Shown one piece after another: positions 3,083 to 53,465 of a DNA stretch of 64,000 nucleotides. Both the position numbers and the translations under genes were made by a program. The stretch's first letter is position 1. Each line of letters opens with the position of its first letter. This DNA is from an uncultured Bacilli bacterium (GTDB lineage: Bacteria; Bacillota_I; Bacilli_A; RF39; UBA660), in the NCBI GenBank assembly GCA_934096595.1, contig CAKOMH010000001.1, positions 494 through 64,493 of the forward strand. The letters run 5' to 3'. The notes under the pieces were generated by a model. The model did not search any database, had not been told where the DNA came from, and was given only the letters and a program-made list of their open reading frames with translations.

Positions 3083-3452
3083 GGGGCAGCATTGGTTTCG
3101 ACAGATATTTGTAAATTTTAGATGGCAAGTAGTCATGAAAACGACTTAAAATTTTCAATTAAATTTAAATGACGAAACAGAAGGAAACTTTGGTTTCAAT
3201 TTTGCTCCTTCATTTGCTTAAGTAAGCATTGGAGCTGCTTATTCTAGATTTATCTGTGATTTAGTTTAAGTATAATATTAGCGGATTATATTATTTTATT
3301 TGATTAGAATAAAATAATGAATAATATCTAATCTAGTTATAAATAAGGTAAGTTAAAGCCATTTTTATAATGAAATTCAAGTTTTAACTAAACTTGTAGA
3401 AGTCTAAGGTTTAGATATTTGGACAGGAGTTCAACTCTCCTCTGCTCCACCA
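3083..3452 (+). ncRNA. ssrA: tmRNA (SsrA), about 370 nt. It has a 5' GGGGCAGCATTGGTTTCGACAG acceptor/tRNA-like half and a 3' T-arm-like GAGTTCAACTCTCC plus GCTCCACCA end. The internal tag ORF ends ...NFGFNFAPSFA-TAA.
   Basis: The 5' and 3' ends match the hallmark tmRNA tRNA-like domain. The tag reading frame GAC GAA ACA GAA GGA AAC TTT GGT TTC AAT TTT GCT CCT TCA TTT GCT TAA gives a degradation tag ending in FA, as in Mollicutes/Erysipelotrichia-type tags. There is a consensus promoter upstream and a terminator downstream. Confidence 0.85.
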
Positions 3453-30812: not shown

Positions 30813-30860
30813 AAATATCACCTTTCTTTTCTTAGTATCCTTTATTATATTTTCTTTTTT

Positions 30861-30902
30861 TATTTATCTTTTTTTATTTATCTTTTTTTATTTATCCTCT
30901 TT
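30861..30902. repeat. Tandem 14-bp repeat TATTTATCTTTTTT x about 2.8, in the 570-bp whiA upstream region.
   Basis: Direct reading. Confidence 0.7.
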
Positions 30903-30950
30903 TATTATTTTAGTTTTAGTAATTTTTTTAAATTAACCACTTTTTTATAA

Positions 30951-30989
30951 ATGACATTTTAAGTAAATCACTTTTTAAAATTGTCATCT
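30951..30989. promoter_or_regulatory. Near-perfect inverted repeat ATGACATTTTAA-N13-TTAAAATTGTCAT upstream of whiA. Candidate operator.
   Basis: 12-13 bp arms with one indel. Confidence 0.35.
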
Positions 30990-46547: not shown

Positions 46548-46671
46548 TTTTCTTTACCTCCAATAAAATTATAACACAAAATCAAGGCTTGCCAAGTCTT
46601 TTTAAGTGAAATATAACTTCACAATAAGCCTAAAGTCCTATAATTTTTCTTAGGGTAAACAAAAATAACTT

Positions 46672-47721
46672 TTATCTACTAACTTTTTCTTTAACATCAG
46701 CACTTTTTAAGCAAAAAGATTCCAAATAAGGTATTAACACATTTTTATATAATTCTTCAAAAGAACTATAATTTGGCATATTCTCTTTTATAAGATCCGC
46801 TATTTCCTCAGTTCTAACAAAGCCAACTTTCTTAAACCATTCAAAATCTGGTCGCATTTCTTCTCTTGATATCCATTTTTCACTCATCAAGGCCGAAACA
46901 GCCCTTACAAAATATTCATATAACAGTGTTTTAGTCATTCCTGAATAAGTCTTAGGTAAACCATTTGTCAGTGCTTCCTTGATTAAATAATCATAATTAG
47001 AAACAGTATCATAATACTTATCCACAATTGGATTAACAAAATGATGAGCAAATTCATGATTTATCGAAATAAAATTATATCTTTTATTTACAGAGAACTT
47101 ACCATTTTCGTACTTAATCGCTCTAGTACAATATAGAAAATTACCAATGGTTGAAGAAAACCCACCATTCATAAAAATAGAACCACTAATATTTAAATCA
47201 ATATCTTCCTTACTTCCAAAGAAATTTAAAACATAAGCCTTATTATATCCATCTGGTAATTTACCCAAAGCCTCTTGTTGCAACTTTAATTCTTCTTTAT
47301 TATCTTCTAAAATTTTATTCATATCAAAAGATAAATAAACTTCTTTTACTAGTTCTAAATATTCTCTTAAATCCTCTTTTTTAAAAGGTTTATTAATTTT
47401 AACAATATCTTCATATCTAATAGAAAAATCCTCATTAAATAAATAAGCTATATGATTGTAATAAGCCTCATCATCTATATCTAACATATATTTTTCTAAT
47501 TGAGGAAATTTATCAAAATCAATCTTACTTACAATATCGTTAAAATACTTAGTATTTGGAAATTCTACCCAATCAAATTCATCTTTATTTTTATAATTAT
47601 TTTTTATTACATAACTACACACGATAGCATGAATAAAATCTACTCTCTTATCTAATCCAAATTTTATATCACACATAATATCATCTCTTTTCATCACTTT
47701 ATAATTTTTACTATTTATCAA
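46672..47721 (-). CDS. DUF4932-like putative zinc metallopeptidase (HEFAH, followed 25 aa later by KEALT, gluzincin-like)
   Basis: INHEFAHHFVNP motif. No signal peptide. Confidence 0.55.
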   Translation of the reverse strand: MINSKNYKVMKRDDIMCDIKFGLDKRVDFIHAIVCSYVIKNNYKNKDEFDWVEFPNTKYFNDIVSKIDFDKFPQLEKYMLDIDDEAYYNHIAYLFNEDFSIRYEDIVKINKPFKKEDLREYLELVKEVYLSFDMNKILEDNKEELKLQQEALGKLPDGYNKAYVLNFFGSKEDIDLNISGSIFMNGGFSSTIGNFLYCTRAIKYENGKFSVNKRYNFISINHEFAHHFVNPIVDKYYDTVSNYDYLIKEALTNGLPKTYSGMTKTLLYEYFVRAVSALMSEKWISREEMRPDFEWFKKVGFVRTEEIADLIKENMPNYSSFEELYKNVLIPYLESFCLKSADVKEKVSR

Positions 47722-47745
47722 TATACTTATTAAACATACTATCCA

Positions 47746-48573
47746 TTATTTTTCTTCACTACTTCTATATTTGAATAGTACTGATGGTCGATGCCCTTCA
47801 CCTTTTTTTACTTTATCCGTTTTTACAACTTTATTAGCGATAATCCTTCTAAACGCAGGATCTAACAATTCTTTATTTAAAATAACTTCATAAACTTGTT
47901 GCAAATCTCCCAAAGTAAAATATTCAGGCATCAAATTAAATGCAATATCCGTATAACTAATTTTATTTTTAAGCCTTTCAATACCAGTATAAATGATTAA
48001 GGAATGATCAAAAGCAATATCGTTACTCTCTTCTATTACATAAGAATAATTGTCAGAAGTTTTTTCTTTTAATATCTTTTTTAACTTGAACTTTAATTGC
48101 ACATTATTGTTATCTAGCAAAACTAAAATGTTATCTTCATCCTCAAAATATTTAACATTAAACCACGAAGCATTGAATGCTAAATTATTATTAAGCAAAT
48201 TTTTATCTACCAAAGCCATATATGATGTTGATAACACACGCATTCTTGGGTCTCTTTTTACACTTCCAAAAGTATATAACTGTTCCAAATAAATATTTTC
48301 TAAATTTGTTTCTTTTTTTAAAATTCTCTTAGGACTATCTTCTAAATCCTCATCAATTCCAACAAACCCTCCAGGTAAGCACCATTTATTTTTAAATGGA
48401 TAACTATCTCTCTTAACCAATAAAACGCTCATATGTTTCTTAGTTGTCTTACGATAATTTGCATTTTCTTCACTGCTAATACTAAACACAAGAATATCCG
48501 TTGTTACCGATAATAAATCAAAATCATTTTTATTATAATTTTTTAAAAATTCTTCCTCACTTTTATACATCAT
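47746..48573 (-). CDS. Nudix hydrolase fused to an NrtR-like C-terminal winged-helix domain (Nudix-related transcriptional regulator family)
   Basis: Nudix box GGFVGIDEDLEDSPKRILKKETNLE. C-terminus FTLGDLQQVYEVIL...GEGHRPSVLFKY resembles the NrtR wHTH. Confidence 0.65.
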   Translation of the reverse strand: MMYKSEEEFLKNYNKNDFDLLSVTTDILVFSISSEENANYRKTTKKHMSVLLVKRDSYPFKNKWCLPGGFVGIDEDLEDSPKRILKKETNLENIYLEQLYTFGSVKRDPRMRVLSTSYMALVDKNLLNNNLAFNASWFNVKYFEDEDNILVLLDNNNVQLKFKLKKILKEKTSDNYSYVIEESNDIAFDHSLIIYTGIERLKNKISYTDIAFNLMPEYFTLGDLQQVYEVILNKELLDPAFRRIIANKVVKTDKVKKGEGHRPSVLFKYRSSEEK

Positions 48574-48837
48574 GTTCTAAAATCCTTTCTTCTTAACCAA
48601 TTTATTATATCAAACATTATATTTTTCTTCACAAATTTTCCTTAAATCTGTCATCAACTTATAATAACTCCTTTATTATTTTGATTTTCTTTAATTATTT
48701 ATCATATAAAAACTAAAAAAATAACTATGCTTTATAAAAAAGAGGTATTTTTAACCCCAAAAGTTGTAATTCGCATAGTGACATAATTAGCAATACAATT
48801 AAAATATATTATTTTTCCCAATTTTATTTAATCTTTT

Positions 48838-49452
48838 TTATTTTCTTACCCATTTCCATTTATATAAACTTCTATCTAGCCGAATGCCATCTCTTGCCAT
48901 AGCATCCTTCAATTTTTCAGCATCTCTATACAGAAACGAGTCTCTTTCATCAACTAATGATAGTGAAACTATTATTTCAGCATTACGATTTCTATTCTTA
49001 AAATATCTCCTTAATAAAATTGTTAAATTTGCAATATCAGTCTCCAACAAAGTTCCAGCAAGTGTTATACTGGTCAAATTTGGCATCTTGTCTAAAAGTG
49101 CTAATAATTTCTTGGCATCCGCAAAATCTTTAAACACATCTATTTCTTTAACATTTAATTCTTGATATTTAATTTTATCTTTTTCTAAAAGCCCTTTTTT
49201 ATAGCAGAGATAACTACTTCTAATATATTTATTATATAGCATTTCCTTTGTTTCAAAGTCTAAATTGTTACCAGTAATTGATTTTATTCTTTTACAAGAA
49301 TCTAGTGTAGATGTATTTATAAAAAATATACTTTTATTATCATACACGCTATAATAAAGCAATGCCCGTAAATCACTCATTGTCTCTATCTGGCAAGCCT
49401 CATCGTTAAGTATAAATACCAAATTTTTTTCATTTTCTAATTTTGTTTCCAT
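48838..49452 (-). CDS. Hypothetical 204-aa protein
   Basis: ORF track. It has its own consensus promoter upstream. No recognised domain. Confidence 0.5.
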   Translation of the reverse strand: METKLENEKNLVFILNDEACQIETMSDLRALLYYSVYDNKSIFFINTSTLDSCKRIKSITGNNLDFETKEMLYNKYIRSSYLCYKKGLLEKDKIKYQELNVKEIDVFKDFADAKKLLALLDKMPNLTSITLAGTLLETDIANLTILLRRYFKNRNRNAEIIVSLSLVDERDSFLYRDAEKLKDAMARDGIRLDRSLYKWKWVRK

Positions 49453-49539
49453 ATAAAATCCCCCACAATTAAGTTATTATCATTTTGCTAATAACAGTGC
49501 ATATTTTTTAGAAAGAGTCTTCTCTCTTTCGTTATTAAC

Positions 49540-49568
49540 ATTATATTAATATCACAGCATTTTGTCAA
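49540..49568 (-). promoter_or_regulatory. Consensus sigma-A promoter (TTGACA-N17-TATAAT on the minus strand) driving the 204-aa gene. A short hairpin GAAAGAG/CTCTTTC lies in its 5' UTR.
   Basis: Reverse complement of 49563-49568 is TTGACA, and of 49540-49545 is TATAAT. Confidence 0.6.
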
Positions 49569-49607
49569 CTGTTTTTTACAAAATGTTAAAAAGATTTTTA
49601 ATTACTA

Positions 49608-49832
49608 TCATCTTATTTTTGGATAAGCCCTTCGTTCATTCGTAAGTCCAATTAAATAATCAACACTGGTATTATAAAATTTAGCTAGTTGTACTAATCT
49701 TTCTACAGAAATCAACTGTATACCTAATTCATACTTAGAATATTGTTGTTGTGTAGTCCCTAAAATTTTAGCAATATCACTTTGTTTATAATCTCTATCT
49801 TCTCTAATTTCTTTTAGCCTTGAAATATCCAT
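49608..49832 (-). CDS. XRE-family helix-turn-helix transcriptional regulator
   Basis: HTH_3 pattern: QSDIAKILGTTQQQYSKYELG. Confidence 0.8.
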   Translation of the reverse strand: MDISRLKEIREDRDYKQSDIAKILGTTQQQYSKYELGIQLISVERLVQLAKFYNTSVDYLIGLTNERRAYPKIR

Positions 49833-49886
49833 ATTTATTCCTGCTTTGCAAGAATAATCTCACACATCTTTTTATATGTAGCCTGT

Positions 49887-49904
49887 ATACATCTTTATAG
49901 ATGT
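49887..49904. promoter_or_regulatory. Palindrome TACATCT-TTAT-AGATGTA between the divergent XRE gene and the secreted-protein gene. Candidate XRE operator.
   Basis: 7-bp perfect inverted arms. Confidence 0.4.
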
Positions 49905-49960
49905 AAATTAATTTTTAAATTAAGTAATTGATTTAATATTTACTTAGAAAGTAGGAAAAT

Positions 49961-50887
49961 ATGAAAAAAATAATATCTTTAGTATCTTTAATACTTTGTA
50001 CGCTTACAATACCTATAATTTATTTTATTAAACAAAATAATAATAAATATATTGCCGTTTATCTTGATAATATAGAAAGTACTTCTATTCCTGATAGAAA
50101 TTCTAATTATATTATAGATAAAGTTATTTGTGATAATGATGCCACAGGAACTTGGGACAATGTAAATTGGAGTCTATTAGTAACTAATCTTTCCAAAAGA
50201 AGTAATTGTAAAACTTATTTTCGAAGTAAAAAAGATATTACAATCACTTATGACAATAACTATATAAAAAATAATATATTTGAAGAAAAATTTAATTCTG
50301 AATCATTAAGTATTTCATCAAATTGTACAAATAATACATATCTAACCCATAATATAAGTTACATTAATGGTTACAAAAAATATACCTTTCAAGCCGATAC
50401 AGCAGATTGTGTTAGAGACGGTATATTCCTTAATAATAAAAATGCCCTTGAGGAAAATACCATTTATCATTATAGCTTCGAAGCAAAAGCAAGTGAAAAC
50501 TTTTCTATTTATGTTGGTCCAGAACAAAATGGTCAAAAAACTTACTCTGTAAATCTTAATTGGCAAAAATATAGTACAACTTTTACTAGTAAAAACATAA
50601 GTTGGAGAGTAGCGTTTACCTTTTACTTTTGGATGCCTAGTTCTGGAACAAGAACATTAGAAGTTAAAAACATAGCTCTTCAAGAAGGAGAATATGATAA
50701 TTTTTCTACTACTATTTTAAAAGAATATGATAATCTAAATAACACATTGCCAACTCCAACTAGAGAAAACTATACTTTTTTAGGTTGGTATACTGATCCC
50801 ATTGAAGGAGAAAAAATATCTTCTAAAACTATAGTAACAGAAGATACAACTTATTATGCCCATTGGCAATACAATGAATCCGAATAA
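49961..50887 (+). CDS. Secreted or membrane-anchored protein with a C-terminal Listeria-Bacteroides repeat (Flg_new/InlB B-repeat-like: P.RE.YTF.GWYTD...YA.W)
   Basis: N-terminal signal-anchor. C-terminus TPTRENYTFLGWYTDPIEGEKISSKTIVTEDTTYYAHW. Confidence 0.65.
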   Translation: MKKIISLVSLILCTLTIPIIYFIKQNNNKYIAVYLDNIESTSIPDRNSNYIIDKVICDNDATGTWDNVNWSLLVTNLSKRSNCKTYFRSKKDITITYDNNYIKNNIFEEKFNSESLSISSNCTNNTYLTHNISYINGYKKYTFQADTADCVRDGIFLNNKNALEENTIYHYSFEAKASENFSIYVGPEQNGQKTYSVNLNWQKYSTTFTSKNISWRVAFTFYFWMPSSGTRTLEVKNIALQEGEYDNFSTTILKEYDNLNNTLPTPTRENYTFLGWYTDPIEGEKISSKTIVTEDTTYYAHWQYNESE

Positions 50888-50897
50888 ATCAAATAAG

Positions 50898-51052
50898 AAA
50901 AGCACCTACTCAACATTGAATAGATGCTTCTCACAAATTAACATAATGGACTAAAGAAACATCTAACAGCTCAAATCAAATGTATCTCTTTTTTTATTTA
51001 AGAACCTTCGTTCTTTCAATAGTAGTATAACATAATCAAAATTTTTTGCAAT
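50898..51052 (+). repeat. Copy A of a roughly 155-bp direct repeat. It begins with a hairpin 11 nt after the stop of the preceding gene.
   Basis: About 95% identical to 51327-51480. Confidence 0.85.
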
Positions 51053-51142
51053 TGTTTTTTAATTTTTATCATAATAATATATATTTTAATAAATTAATGG
51101 TTTTTAGTAGATTTATACTGGTCATTATGATACCATATTAGA

Positions 51143-51185
51143 TAGATACATTTGATTGTTAGGTGCTTTCTTTCTCAGTCCATTT
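51143..51185 (-). repeat. Partial inverted copy (about 40 bp) of the repeat's internal segment (GATACATTTGATT...TTCTCAGTCCAT)
   Basis: It is the reverse complement of ATGGACTGAGAAA...AATCAAATGTATC found in copies A and B. Confidence 0.6.
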
Positions 51186-51216
51186 TTATCTTTTAAAAAT
51201 GGAAGGAGGCGGTCCT

Positions 51217-51384
51217 ATGAAAGGAATTCTAAATGGAGTATTTAATTATGCTCATAGTAATTTTAGCCCTTGTGGACGAAATTATAAATTCCATCAAAAG
51301 GAAGTAAATTTTTTTATAAAAAATTTGAGAAGCACCTACTCAACATTGAATAGGTGCTTCTCATATATTACCATAATGGACTGA
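51217..51384 (+). CDS. Small ORF (55 aa, MKGILNGVFNYAHSNFSPCGRNYKFHQKEVNFFIKNLRSTYSTLNRCFSYITIMD) with an unusually strong GC-rich SD (GGAAGGAGG, 7-nt spacer). Its 3' third lies inside repeat copy B.
   Basis: RBS and ATG read directly. Coding status is uncertain. Confidence 0.3.
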   Translation: MKGILNGVFNYAHSNFSPCGRNYKFHQKEVNFFIKNLRSTYSTLNRCFSYITIMD

Positions 51385-51480
51385 GAAACATCTAACAGCT
51401 CAAATCAAATGTATCTCTTTTTTTATTTAAGAACTTTCGTTCTTTCAATAGTAGTATAGCATAATCAAAATTTTTTGCAA
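51327..51480 (+). repeat. Copy B of the roughly 155-bp direct repeat. It starts with the perfect hairpin GAGAAGCACCT-N14-AGGTGCTTCTC.
   Basis: Matches 50898-51052. Confidence 0.85.
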
Positions 51481-51573
51481 CTATTATTTAAGAATACATT
51501 AATAATATATACTAATATTTTATATTTATACTAAATAAATAATAATTACAATTTCCTGTATTTTATAATTCAT

Positions 51574-51603
51574 GGCTAATTTGCAGCCCATTGCAAATTG
51601 GCC
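51574..51603. other. GC-rich hairpin GGCTAATTTGCA-gcccatt-TGCAAATTGGCC. It is notable in an AT-rich intergenic region.
   Basis: 11-bp stem with one mismatch. Confidence 0.4.
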
Positions 51604-51620
51604 ATTTTTATTCTATTTAA

Positions 51621-51652
51621 AAAGATTAGCACTTAAAACCATACTAATCTTT
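51621..51652 (-). terminator. Rho-independent terminator of typA. The stem AAAGATTAG / CTAATCTTT is followed by a T5 run on the minus strand.
   Basis: Inverted repeat directly after the typA stop. Confidence 0.55.
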
Positions 51653-51659
51653 ATACTTA

Positions 51660-53465
51660 TTATTTTCTATTAACTCTAAATCTTTCATTAGGATCTAAAA
51701 TCTTCTTACGAAGTCTAATAATAGCAGGAGTAACTTCAACATATTCATCTTCTTCGATAAATTCTAAAGCCTCTTCTAAACTAAATGTCTTAGGAGTAAC
51801 TAAAGCAATGGCATCATCAGCCGACTTACTTCTGGTATTAGACATTTCTTTATTTTTACAAGGATTAACATTTAAATCATTATCTCTATTATGGATACCT
51901 ACAATCATACCGATATAAATATCAGCTCCCGGTCCAACAATCATTTGACCCCTATCTTGTAAGTTATATAATGAATAACCTAAAGCCTTACCAGTTTCCA
52001 TTGAAACTAGAACTCCGTTCTTACGGCCTCTAATCTCACCAGCATATGGTTTATATTCATCAAATGAACGAACCATAATACCTTCACCCTTCGTATTAGT
52101 AATAAAGGCACTTCTATAACCAATTAAACCACGAGTTGGGGCACTAAATTCTAAATGCGTATATCCTTCTTCTCCGTTAGACATAACAAGTAAAGTAGCC
52201 TTTCTTTCTTGTAAATCCGAAATAATAGTAGAAGCATAATCACTTGGTGTATTAACAATTACTGTTTCATAAGGTTCACATTTACGCCCATCAATTTCTT
52301 CAAATAAAACTTCTGGTTTAGAAACACATAATTCATAACCTTCACGACGCATTTCCTCAAGTAATACTGATAAATGTAATTCGCCACGACCAGATACTTT
52401 AAACCCATCAGTCCCCGGTAATTCTTCAACTTCTAAACCAACATTAGTTTCTAATTCTTTTTCTAATCTTTCTTTAATATGACGAGAAGTCAAGAACTTA
52501 CCACTTTGACCGGCAAATGGTGATGAGTTAACCATAAAATTCATTGACAAAGTTGGTCTTTCAATAATAATAGGAGGTAGAGGATCAACAACCCCTTGAG
52601 GACATAAAGTATCACCAATTGAAATATCCTTACAACCAGCAACTGTTACAATATCCCCGTAGTAAGCCTCACTTACTTCTTTTTTCTTAATACCTTCGTT
52701 TACAAATAATTTAGAAATTCTAAAAGACTCAACCGCACCAGTATTACGACATAAAGTAACCATTTCACCAGTTTTAACAACACCTTTAGTAACACGACCA
52801 ATACCCAAACGACCAATAAAGGAATCATAATCTAATTGGGAAACTTGAAGTTGTAAAGTATCATCAACACTGCCTTCATAAGGTTTAACTTGTTTTAAAA
52901 CTGTATCAAGTAATGGTGAAATATCATTACCTAAATTATTTAAATCAAGTGTCGCTTTACCATCTCTTGCAACCCCATAAACTATTGGAAAATCTAATTG
53001 TTCATCAGTTGCATTTAATTCCATAAATAAATCAAAAGTCATATTAACTACTTCTTCAGGTCTGGCATCTTTTTTATCAATCTTATTTATGAAAAGAATA
53101 GGTCTTAAATTCTGTTCCAAAGCCTTCTTAAGAACAAATCTCGTTTGAGGCATTGGTCCTTCCTTCGCATCAACAATTAGAATAACTGTATCAACAGTAC
53201 GCATAATTCTTTCAACTTCACTAGAAAAATCTGCATGTCCCGGAGTATCTACAATATTAATCTTATAATCCTTATATCTAATCGCACAGTTCTTAGAATA
53301 AATAGTAATACCTCTTTCTCTTTCTAAGTCATTACTATCCATAACTTGCTCATGAACTACTTCATTATCTCTAAATACTCCATTTTGTTGTAATAGTGCA
53401 TCTACCAAAGTACTTTTACCCGCATCTACATGCGCTACTACTGCAATATTTATAATCTTATCCAT
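51660..53465 (-). CDS. typA: Translational GTPase TypA/BipA
   Basis: G-domain AHVDAGKST, DTPGHADF, NKID. EF-G-like domain order and BipA length. Confidence 0.93.
   Translation of the reverse strand: MDKIINIAVVAHVDAGKSTLVDALLQQNGVFRDNEVVHEQVMDSNDLERERGITIYSKNCAIRYKDYKINIVDTPGHADFSSEVERIMRTVDTVILIVDAKEGPMPQTRFVLKKALEQNLRPILFINKIDKKDARPEEVVNMTFDLFMELNATDEQLDFPIVYGVARDGKATLDLNNLGNDISPLLDTVLKQVKPYEGSVDDTLQLQVSQLDYDSFIGRLGIGRVTKGVVKTGEMVTLCRNTGAVESFRISKLFVNEGIKKKEVSEAYYGDIVTVAGCKDISIGDTLCPQGVVDPLPPIIIERPTLSMNFMVNSSPFAGQSGKFLTSRHIKERLEKELETNVGLEVEELPGTDGFKVSGRGELHLSVLLEEMRREGYELCVSKPEVLFEEIDGRKCEPYETVIVNTPSDYASTIISDLQERKATLLVMSNGEEGYTHLEFSAPTRGLIGYRSAFITNTKGEGIMVRSFDEYKPYAGEIRGRKNGVLVSMETGKALGYSLYNLQDRGQMIVGPGADIYIGMIVGIHNRDNDLNVNPCKNKEMSNTRSKSADDAIALVTPKTFSLEEALEFIEEDEYVEVTPAIIRLRKKILDPNERFRVNRK

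Follow-up and report, generated by a model that had tools for sequence, protein, structure and literature searches.

What do two nearly identical repeats do when they flank a small open reading frame (ORF) that carries an unusually strong Shine-Dalgarno (SD) sequence? The question is raised by positions 50,888 to 51,480 of a 64,000-nucleotide (nt) stretch, hereafter the window, of contig CAKOMH010000001.1 from an uncultured Bacilli bacterium. An earlier note on this DNA had proposed either a miniature inverted-repeat transposable element (MITE)-like mobile element with a small ORF as cargo, or a duplicated terminator/attenuator cassette with a leader peptide. The analysis described here suggests, with a probability of about 0.7, that the locus is a chromosomal type I toxin–antitoxin (TA)-like module, in which an mRNA with a predicted weak plus-strand promoter is opposed by a convergent small RNA (sRNA) with a predicted strong promoter. 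How such a module would work in detail is far more tentative. The family has no counterpart in Pfam, NCBIfam or Rfam and looks like a previously undescribed one from uncultured gut Bacilli.

The repeat layout drawn in the earlier note was borne out. The two direct copies, A (50900-51051) and B (51330-51480), are 94.7% identical over a 152-nt alignment, with weaker similarity reaching beyond them (50891-51062 against 51321-51491), and both end in AATCAAAATTTTTTGCAA. On the plus strand each copy starts with a hairpin, which in copy B is perfect (GAGAAGCACCT...AGGTGCTTCTC, -24.2 kcal/mol) and in copy A contains two A-C mismatches (-10.2 kcal/mol), replaced on the minus strand by G-U pairs (-21.7 kcal/mol). 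The inverted partial copy that lies between them was resolved by the repeat scan into two perfect 14-nt blocks, one (51144-51157) being the reverse complement of both 50974-50987 and 51403-51416, the other (51171-51184) that of 51375-51388. No third copy of the element was found elsewhere in the 64-kb window. The arrangement does not reflect chance, since 16 homologous units, elsewhere only 70-82% identical, have kept the blocks in this arrangement.

Each ~155-bp copy is a complete predicted promoter-to-terminator sRNA gene on the minus strand (Table 1). The promoter and terminator scan of this strand found, in each copy, TTGCAA, a 16-nt spacer, TRTGnTATACT and a hairpin followed by a T tail. 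The promoter hexamers are invariant in the 16 units, and the spacer is fixed at 16 nt with a variable sequence. The predicted ~130-nt sRNA folds into three hairpins, at -46.8 kcal/mol for copy B (z = -8.4 against shuffles) and -38.8 kcal/mol for copy A (z = -4.9). Its second hairpin reaches -11.5 and -10.0 kcal/mol on the minus strand, against -4.7 and -1.3 kcal/mol on the plus strand, and holds three invariant G-U pairs that are stable on the minus strand only. Because these G-U pairs become A-C mismatches on the plus strand, the sRNA was assigned to the minus strand. In a consensus structure built from 12 copies, hairpins 1 and 2 were conserved, and four to five pairs of the terminator stem displayed compensatory changes. 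The Rfam match that had been sought was not obtained: in a permissive E-value scan of 50500-51900, no hit came near its gathering score (best, 26 bits against 49 and 25 against 48).

Between the two copies lie two overlapping ORFs. ORF1, the 55-codon frame already described, starts downstream of the strong SD (SD1), overlaps a second, 24-amino-acid (aa) ORF out of frame, and reads through the hairpin shared by the two convergent transcripts into copy B. The two start codons are 13-16 nt apart. The 24-aa ORF has an SD-like AAGGA of its own at 51221-51225; across the units, AAGGA or GGAG stands 7 nt before its ATG or GTG, and SD1 always lies 22-24 nt away from this ORF (11 units measured). Its product is 24 aa long in 15 of the 16 units and 23 aa in the first unit of locus L017, with start and stop at constant alignment positions. 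The peptides (further examples are MEYLVALIVILVLIDKITSSNKRD, MEHLIALIIILVLIDRIVNSNYRD and VEYLVIFALILVILDEVINSIRRK) consist of a hydrophobic core and then a charged tail, and differ among units by conservative substitutions. Over the same 72 nt of the 16 units, the ratio of non-synonymous to synonymous polymorphism (pN/pS) was 0.39 for the 24-aa frame and 0.89 for the ORF1 frame. By this comparison, purifying selection is on the 24-aa frame only. Pfam and NCBIfam scans with four variants of this candidate toxin and with ORF1 returned noise only, with no match at E ≤ 10.

ORF1 is constrained in a different manner. The frame ranges from 42 to 63 aa, ends either in the hairpin loop or in the 3' tail of the mRNA, and passes through the hairpin in a phase that differs among lineages; its ATG follows SD1 by 7-11 nt in 15 of the 16 units and is ACG in the second unit of L010. 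In the 11 units counted, it contains no stop codon, against 3-7 in the third frame. When the toxin ORF was recoded synonymously with the codon usage of the window, the ORF1 frame stayed open in only 0.02-0.33% of trials per lineage; as an example of this constraint, the Asp15 codon is always GAC despite a 29%-GC genome. Since the frame is kept stop-free though its peptide is not conserved, translation of ORF1 through the toxin ORF up to the hairpin appears to be under selection, and its peptide sequence does not.

These data also bear on the possibility that ORF1, a basic peptide with a strong SD, is the actual product, the 24-aa frame being a by-product and the flanking RNAs unrelated trans-acting sRNAs. 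ORF1 has the best SD and spacing, its frame is kept open, and it is the frame that gene callers annotate, albeit solely as an 'unknown' or 'hypothetical' protein (CCY88027.1, MDY5873353.1); in strains L001-L004, no gene is annotated between TypA and the 308-aa gene. However, a pN/pS of 0.89, the variation in length, end point and frame through the hairpin, and the ACG in place of the ATG in one unit speak against a selected product, and the constant length, the constant start and stop and the conservative substitutions all belong to the 24-aa frame. We therefore regard ORF1 as most improbable in that role. Rather, it behaves like a leader. The earlier idea of a duplicated terminator cassette with a leader peptide was thus right as to the terminators and the leader-like ORF, and missed the sRNA gene on the opposite strand and the 24-aa ORF.

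The plus-strand mRNA is predicted to start near 51144. An element TRTGnTA(C/T)(C/T)AT is kept in 15 of the 16 units (the second unit of L018 has TATA in place of TRTG) and precedes TAGATACATTTGATT by ~7 nt, which makes the first inverted block the probable start of the mRNA. Another candidate for the toxin promoter, TATACT at 51114-51119, was demoted, as it is not conserved in L012, L014, L017 and the first unit of L018, and several units have AGTACC, TTTAAT or TTGCAT in its place. Downstream of the 5'-end blocks, an anti-SD segment, CUC(A/G)GUCCAU, pairs with the SD1-containing AUGGAAGGAG, forming a hairpin that is conserved across the units. At the other end, the 3' tail is followed by a run of seven T (51418-51424). 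This tail is almost unstructured on the plus strand (-4.7 kcal/mol), by contrast with -11.5 kcal/mol on the minus strand, and a local plus-strand terminator at the T run was rejected as an autonomous one, its hairpin being worth merely -4.7 kcal/mol. Farther downstream, between sRNA B and the end of TypA, a 34-nt near-perfect palindrome (51572-51605, ATGGCTAATTTGCAGCCCATTGCAAATTGGCCAT) with a T tail on the plus strand scores as a plus-strand terminator and could block read-through from the module into TypA.

What, then, are the inverted blocks for? The minimum free energy (MFE) fold of the plus-strand RNA joins 51144-51165 and the anti-SD to 51376-51416: the 5'-end blocks pair with the 3' tail at 51403-51416 and 51389-51396, and the anti-SD finds an alternative partner at 51376-51385. 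In the 16 units, pairing is retained at 94-98% for the 35 long-range pairs and falls to 28-46% if the partner is shifted by 1-3 columns; for the 25 pairs that involve the 5'-end blocks, it is 97-98%. One pair underwent an AU-to-GC double change (second unit of L017), two pairs cycle through AU, GU and GC, and the anti-SD pair 74/309 is AU in 7 units, GU in 8 and GC in 1. Thus, the inverted repeats once taken to bracket a mobile cargo correspond instead to 5'-3' pairing within the mRNA. The 5'-end blocks have the same sequence as the arms of sRNA hairpin 2, not their complement, because the DNA repeats are inverted and the two genes convergent. Hence, the sRNA is predicted not to pair with the mRNA 5' end, but each of them could pair with the mRNA tail. 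The hok mRNA contains a fold-back inhibition element.

To place the locus among its relatives, we assembled homologues from several searches. A pattern scan of 185,579 species genomes retrieved 3 stretches, in two 'uncultured Bacilli' gut metagenome-assembled genomes from Hadza samples, and a scan of a metagenome collection with the conserved core patterns added 4 more. An ORF1 peptide profile matched 46 proteins, which are named solely 'unknown [Mycoplasma sp. CAG:956]' or 'hypothetical protein [Bacilli bacterium]', and further loci were taken from the contigs of these proteins. With an nhmmer profile of the unit, 16 distinct complete units were delineated. At least four chromosomal contexts are occupied, by a single unit or by two or three in tandem. 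One unit together with an orphan sRNA gene makes up the window locus, and likewise its orthologue L009; in the near-identical strains L001-L005, the structure is that of the window. Downstream of a YunB-family gene, the number of units differs among genomes, being one in L012-L016, two in L010 and three in L011; this locus, next to a sporulation gene and spanning 5650-6610 in L010 and 5690-7090 in L011, is thus polymorphic in copy number. L017 has two units adjoining a Peptidase_S11 gene, and L018 two units after a histidine kinase gene.

In the window, the module sits at the TypA-proximal edge of a ~5.1-kb segment (46583-51659) between TypA and DcuC, whereas in relatives whose TypA is 87-90% identical (L021-L023), TypA is directly followed by DcuC. 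Besides the module, the segment encodes a DUF4932 protein, a NUDIX/NrtR-like regulator, a 204-aa ORF, an Xre-type helix-turn-helix protein and a Flg_new-repeat protein. Tandem arrays, at least four contexts and a position at the edge of a segment absent from relatives are typical of type I TA families. Copy A was matched by the unit model over its sRNA part only (model positions 266-431), has intact signals and is kept in L009. The most plausible interpretation is that copy A is an orphan second antitoxin gene, or what is left of a unit whose toxin was lost; being 95% identical to copy B, it could pair with the same mRNA tail. Its terminator also closes the convergent 308-aa Flg_new gene.

Some incomplete loci were observed as well. 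L020 (235-520) has an intact promoter, 5' untranslated region (UTR), ORF1 and toxin ORF (MEYLIALIVILVLIDKIINSNKKD), but unrelated DNA with a 296-aa minus-strand ORF breaks into the 3' half of its shared hairpin, so that neither 3' tail nor sRNA gene is left; the contig is short and may be an assembly chimera. L019 (367-457) is a decayed remnant, with a 24-aa toxin-like ORF (VEYLVIFVLIIGILAKVINSIRRK) lacking the 5' UTR and the sRNA; here the ORF1 frame continues directly from the 3' end of an ORF lying upstream, which may encode a SpoIIAA/STAS-like protein. Three metagenome contigs with the identical TypA protein (L006-L008) break 79-85 nt past its stop codon, just short of the module, as might be expected if the repeated sRNA genes, or strain variation, had interrupted assembly. 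Genetic code 4, which the 'Mycoplasma sp.' label might imply, was rejected, as long ORFs are intact under code 11 with TGA as a stop; together with the YunB gene, these ORFs argue that labels of the 'Mycoplasma sp. CAG:956' type are misleading for this clade.

The distribution also speaks to the earlier note's MITE-like element, and to its alternative of a plain local duplication of a terminator or attenuator with a fortuitous ORF. The unit does recur at several contexts and in tandem, and the polymorphism and the copies in related genomes that the note had asked for were found; the hairpins are indeed predicted terminators. Yet the two ends of the 155-bp copy, GAGAAGCACC... and ...TTTTTTGCAA, do not form terminal inverted repeats, the copies lack flanking target-site duplications in the window sequence, and in the window, the species genomes and the metagenome scans, sRNA copies were found solely as parts of the module, the core patterns being confined to the 3 species-genome and 4 metagenomic stretches. 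Neither a mobile element nor a local duplication explains the promoter hexamers, the strand-specific G-U pairs and the selected peptide, which are unexpected in a passive repeat, and we consider this class of explanation very remote.

No match to the unit was detected by blastn in phage and plasmid collections, nor by a core-pattern scan of viral contigs. By tblastn, the peptide gave one weak plasmid match (E = 5) and none in phages, and a reciprocal tblastn from the plasmid match returned nothing, the low-complexity filter being suspected of masking the query. The match, which is not significant at E = 5, is an unannotated 23-aa ORF (MEYLIMLVVILLVLDSIFRNKKR) at 501-572 of L024 (NZ_CP094683.1, an Anaerotruncus colihominis plasmid), 61% identical to the window peptide. 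A CCCCC-AAAA-GGGGG hairpin covers the SD of this ORF, a terminator hairpin spans its stop codon, and downstream lies a promoter-like TGnTACAAT site directed towards it. The ORF may represent a distant plasmid relative.

We then compared the module with known type I systems. A convergent, 3'-side sRNA that lies off the toxin ORF is the Gram-positive type I organisation (PMC8594479, PMC4147584), and all Gram-positive systems described up to the review have 3'-overlapping convergent RNAs (PMC4147584, PMC8594479). As in TxpA/RatA and BsrG/SR4, the mRNA and the sRNA are convergent and predicted to overlap at their 3' ends, the sRNA has no complementarity to the ribosome-binding site (RBS), and the SD is held in an intramolecular stem; the sRNA would likely act by decay of the duplex, by changing the structure of the RBS from a distance, or by both (PMC4147584). 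On the other hand, neither toxin nor sRNA is related to theirs in sequence (Pfam, NCBIfam, Rfam), the toxin is 24 aa long instead of 38-59 aa, and the context is non-prophage. Moreover, the predicted sRNA ends at ~51318, 11 nt beyond the toxin stop codon at 51307, and so overlaps ORF1 only, whereas theirs overlaps the toxin ORF; and an overlapping leader ORF and a 5'-3' fold-back are present here.

With Fst/RNA II (par, plasmid pAD1) and SprA1/SprA1as, the module shares predicted convergent promoters, a hairpin common to both genes, an sRNA off the toxin ORF, a 5' stem-loop that sequesters the SD, and a small hydrophobic peptide with a charged C-terminal tail (PMC7472228, PMC8594479). In par, complementarity of the two RNAs at the translation start stems from the direct repeats DRa and DRb (PMC7472228). 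Here the topology is the opposite: the repeats are inverted, and the sRNA and the mRNA 5' end are identical, not complementary. A par-like mechanism was dropped, as the duplex between the sRNA and the mRNA 5' region was no better than with shuffles. The 16 peptides contain neither a PXXXG motif nor a conserved Trp, and there is no Pfam Fst match; the sRNA is ~130 nt long against ~40 nt in par (PMC7472228). The bidirectional terminator that par has between its convergent promoters may have its counterpart in the hairpin shared here, which is a good terminator on the minus strand only, with no U tract on the plus strand.

The third comparison is with hok/mok/sok and Ldr/Rdl of enterobacteria, where a leader ORF, kept free of stops, likewise extends across the toxin ORF in another frame (PMC4147584). 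A sequestered SD is a further feature in common (PMC4147584). The predicted extensive fold-back of the mRNA 5' end onto its 3' end also resembles hok, as a functional analogy only. The module differs from hok/sok in its Gram-positive lineage, in an antisense RNA located at the 3' end and not over the translation start of the leader, in the absence of HOK_GEF homology (Pfam), and in an sRNA that lacks complementarity to the mRNA 5' region. Furthermore, mok is needed for hok translation, and SR4 acts on the RBS from a distance (PMC4147584, PMC8594479); with starts 13-16 nt apart, ORF1 could occlude the toxin ORF as well as couple to it. Since none of the defining sequence features of Fst, TxpA/BsrG or Hok is found, the module is filed as a new family and variant within type I TA, and under none of the named families. 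In the literature we found no description of it, and no Gram-positive example that combines a leader ORF with a fold-back.

Taken together, two features expected of a type I system are present: a small (<60 aa) hydrophobic ORF of 24 aa, and a structure that masks the RBS (the SD1 hairpin) in loci that form arrays of 1-3 units. As to a third, a separate antisense RNA, there is a convergent gene with conserved promoter, terminator and structure, and its complementarity to the mRNA would extend over at least the 36-nt hairpin and up to ~105 nt, depending on the predicted mRNA 3' end. The strongest competitor is a non-toxic small membrane-protein gene, for example a modulator of another membrane protein, whose expression is tuned by a cis-antisense sRNA without any TA relationship. 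All structural evidence is equally compatible with it, the toxicity of the 24-aa peptide is a prediction, its hydrophobic stretch is short, and the loci lie on chromosomes and match no phage or plasmid DNA. However, tandem amplification, copy-number polymorphism, an orphan sRNA, remnants (L019, L020) and layered translational locks are hallmarks of type I TA and would be unusual for housekeeping small proteins; and an excess of antitoxin would be in keeping with a strong promoter for the sRNA and a weak one for the mRNA. We therefore consider this explanation unlikely, though it is the most credible of the rivals.

Several observations weigh against a type I TA module or its proposed regulation. 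The promoters, RNA ends and overlap are predictions. The peptide has only ~13 strongly hydrophobic residues and resembles no known toxin family, and every homologue found belongs to a single narrow clade of uncultured Bacilli. On the plus strand there is no clear intrinsic terminator, the shared hairpin lacking a U tract, which makes the extent of the overlap uncertain. As for the long-range pairing, covariation is sparse and the 3' arm is also constrained by the sRNA hairpin. With duplexfold, the sRNA paired with the mRNA 5' region, including the ribosome-binding region, no better than shuffles did. Finally, partition functions computed for the mRNA at full length, truncated or with its tail blocked gave an ambiguous picture: SD1 was unpaired with a probability of 0.32 at full length and of 0.23 once the tail was removed or blocked, and the accessibility of the ORF1 AUG went the opposite way, from 0.52 to 0.65. 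Because of this ambiguity, we claim no direction for the effect of the fold-back.

Given a type I module, its mechanism can be outlined only tentatively. The mRNA would read through the shared hairpin to the T run at ~51424, and this read-through would give the ~105-nt overlap with the sRNA. The abundant sRNA would pair with the locally unstructured tail, seeding from the single-stranded CUCAGUCCAU linker, and the long duplex would lead to RNase III-type decay, as in TxpA/RatA; binding may also alter the fold around the RBS, as in BsrG/SR4. When the sRNA is absent, the tail would pair with the mRNA 5' end in a hok-like fold-back, and toxin translation would then be set by SD1 and ORF1, through coupling (as in mok/hok) or occlusion. 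A further reading, which we hold to be possible but doubtful, is RNA mimicry: instead of masking the RBS, the antitoxin sRNA would copy the mRNA 5' end and the anti-SD and compete with them for the 3' tail, and the outcome would set the translation of SD1/ORF1 and thereby that of the 24-aa toxin.

Table 1 Predicted features of the module in the window.
Feature	Position	Strand	Basis
sRNA gene, copy A (orphan antitoxin candidate)	50889..51051	-	promoter/terminator scan, fold
Copy A, terminator hairpin	50897-50932	-	scan
Copy A, predicted transcript	~51018 to ~50889	-	scan
Copy A, TRTG and -10 TATACT	51024-51029	-	scan
Copy A, -35 TTGCAA	51046-51051	-	scan
Predicted toxin-mRNA promoter (-16 TATG, A, -10 TACCAT)	51126..51136	+	conservation
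mRNA 5'-end blocks AGATACATTTGATT and GTTAGGTG	51144..51165	+	inverted repeats, MFE fold
Anti-SD CTCAGTCCAT	51174-51183	+	inverted repeats, folds, conservation
SD1 GGAAGGAGG	51201-51209	+	sequestered in hairpin 51174..51209
ORF1, 55 codons (TGA 51382-51384, inside copy B)	51217..51384	+	ORF scan, conservation
Candidate toxin ORF, 24 aa, MEYLIMLIVILALVDEIINSIKRK	51233..51307	+	length, start/stop conservation, pN/pS
sRNA gene, copy B (cognate antitoxin candidate)	51318..51480	-	scan, fold, consensus structure
Copy B, predicted transcript, ~130 nt	~51447 to ~51318	-	scan
Hairpin common to the convergent transcripts (start of copy B)	51327..51362	both	sRNA B terminator on -; stable, without U tract on +
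mRNA 3' tail (partner of 5' blocks and anti-SD)	51376..51424	+	its minus strand is the body of sRNA B
Copy B, TRTG and -10 TATACT	51453-51458	-	scan
Copy B, -35 TTGCAA	51475-51480	-	scan

Elsewhere in the window, a transfer-messenger RNA gene lies on the plus strand at 3083-3452 and encodes the tag peptide DETEGNFGFNFAPSFA, and a T-rich intergenic region at 30825-30979 contains tandem repeats, a 14-nt unit (TCTTTTTTTATTTA) repeated ~6 times and an adjacent 16-nt unit repeated ~3.5 times.

Type I TA systems are hard to detect by homology and have been reported from few phyla (PMC12390103). The family presented here comes from uncultured human-gut Bacilli (Hadza and other gut metagenomes), and its sole public annotation is a 'hypothetical protein' in the wrong frame; a description would bring a toxin peptide family and an sRNA family into the catalogues and correct the annotation of these genomes. 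The locus is also a compact natural test case for the control of 5' translation by an antisense RNA bound at the 3' end, and bears on whether leader ORFs act by coupling or by occlusion, and on the keeping of orphan antitoxin genes. If the mimicry reading is true, the module, with its mok-like leader ORF and hok-like fold-back, would represent convergent evolution of the regulatory logic of hok in Firmicutes, with the antisense RNA at the other end of the message.

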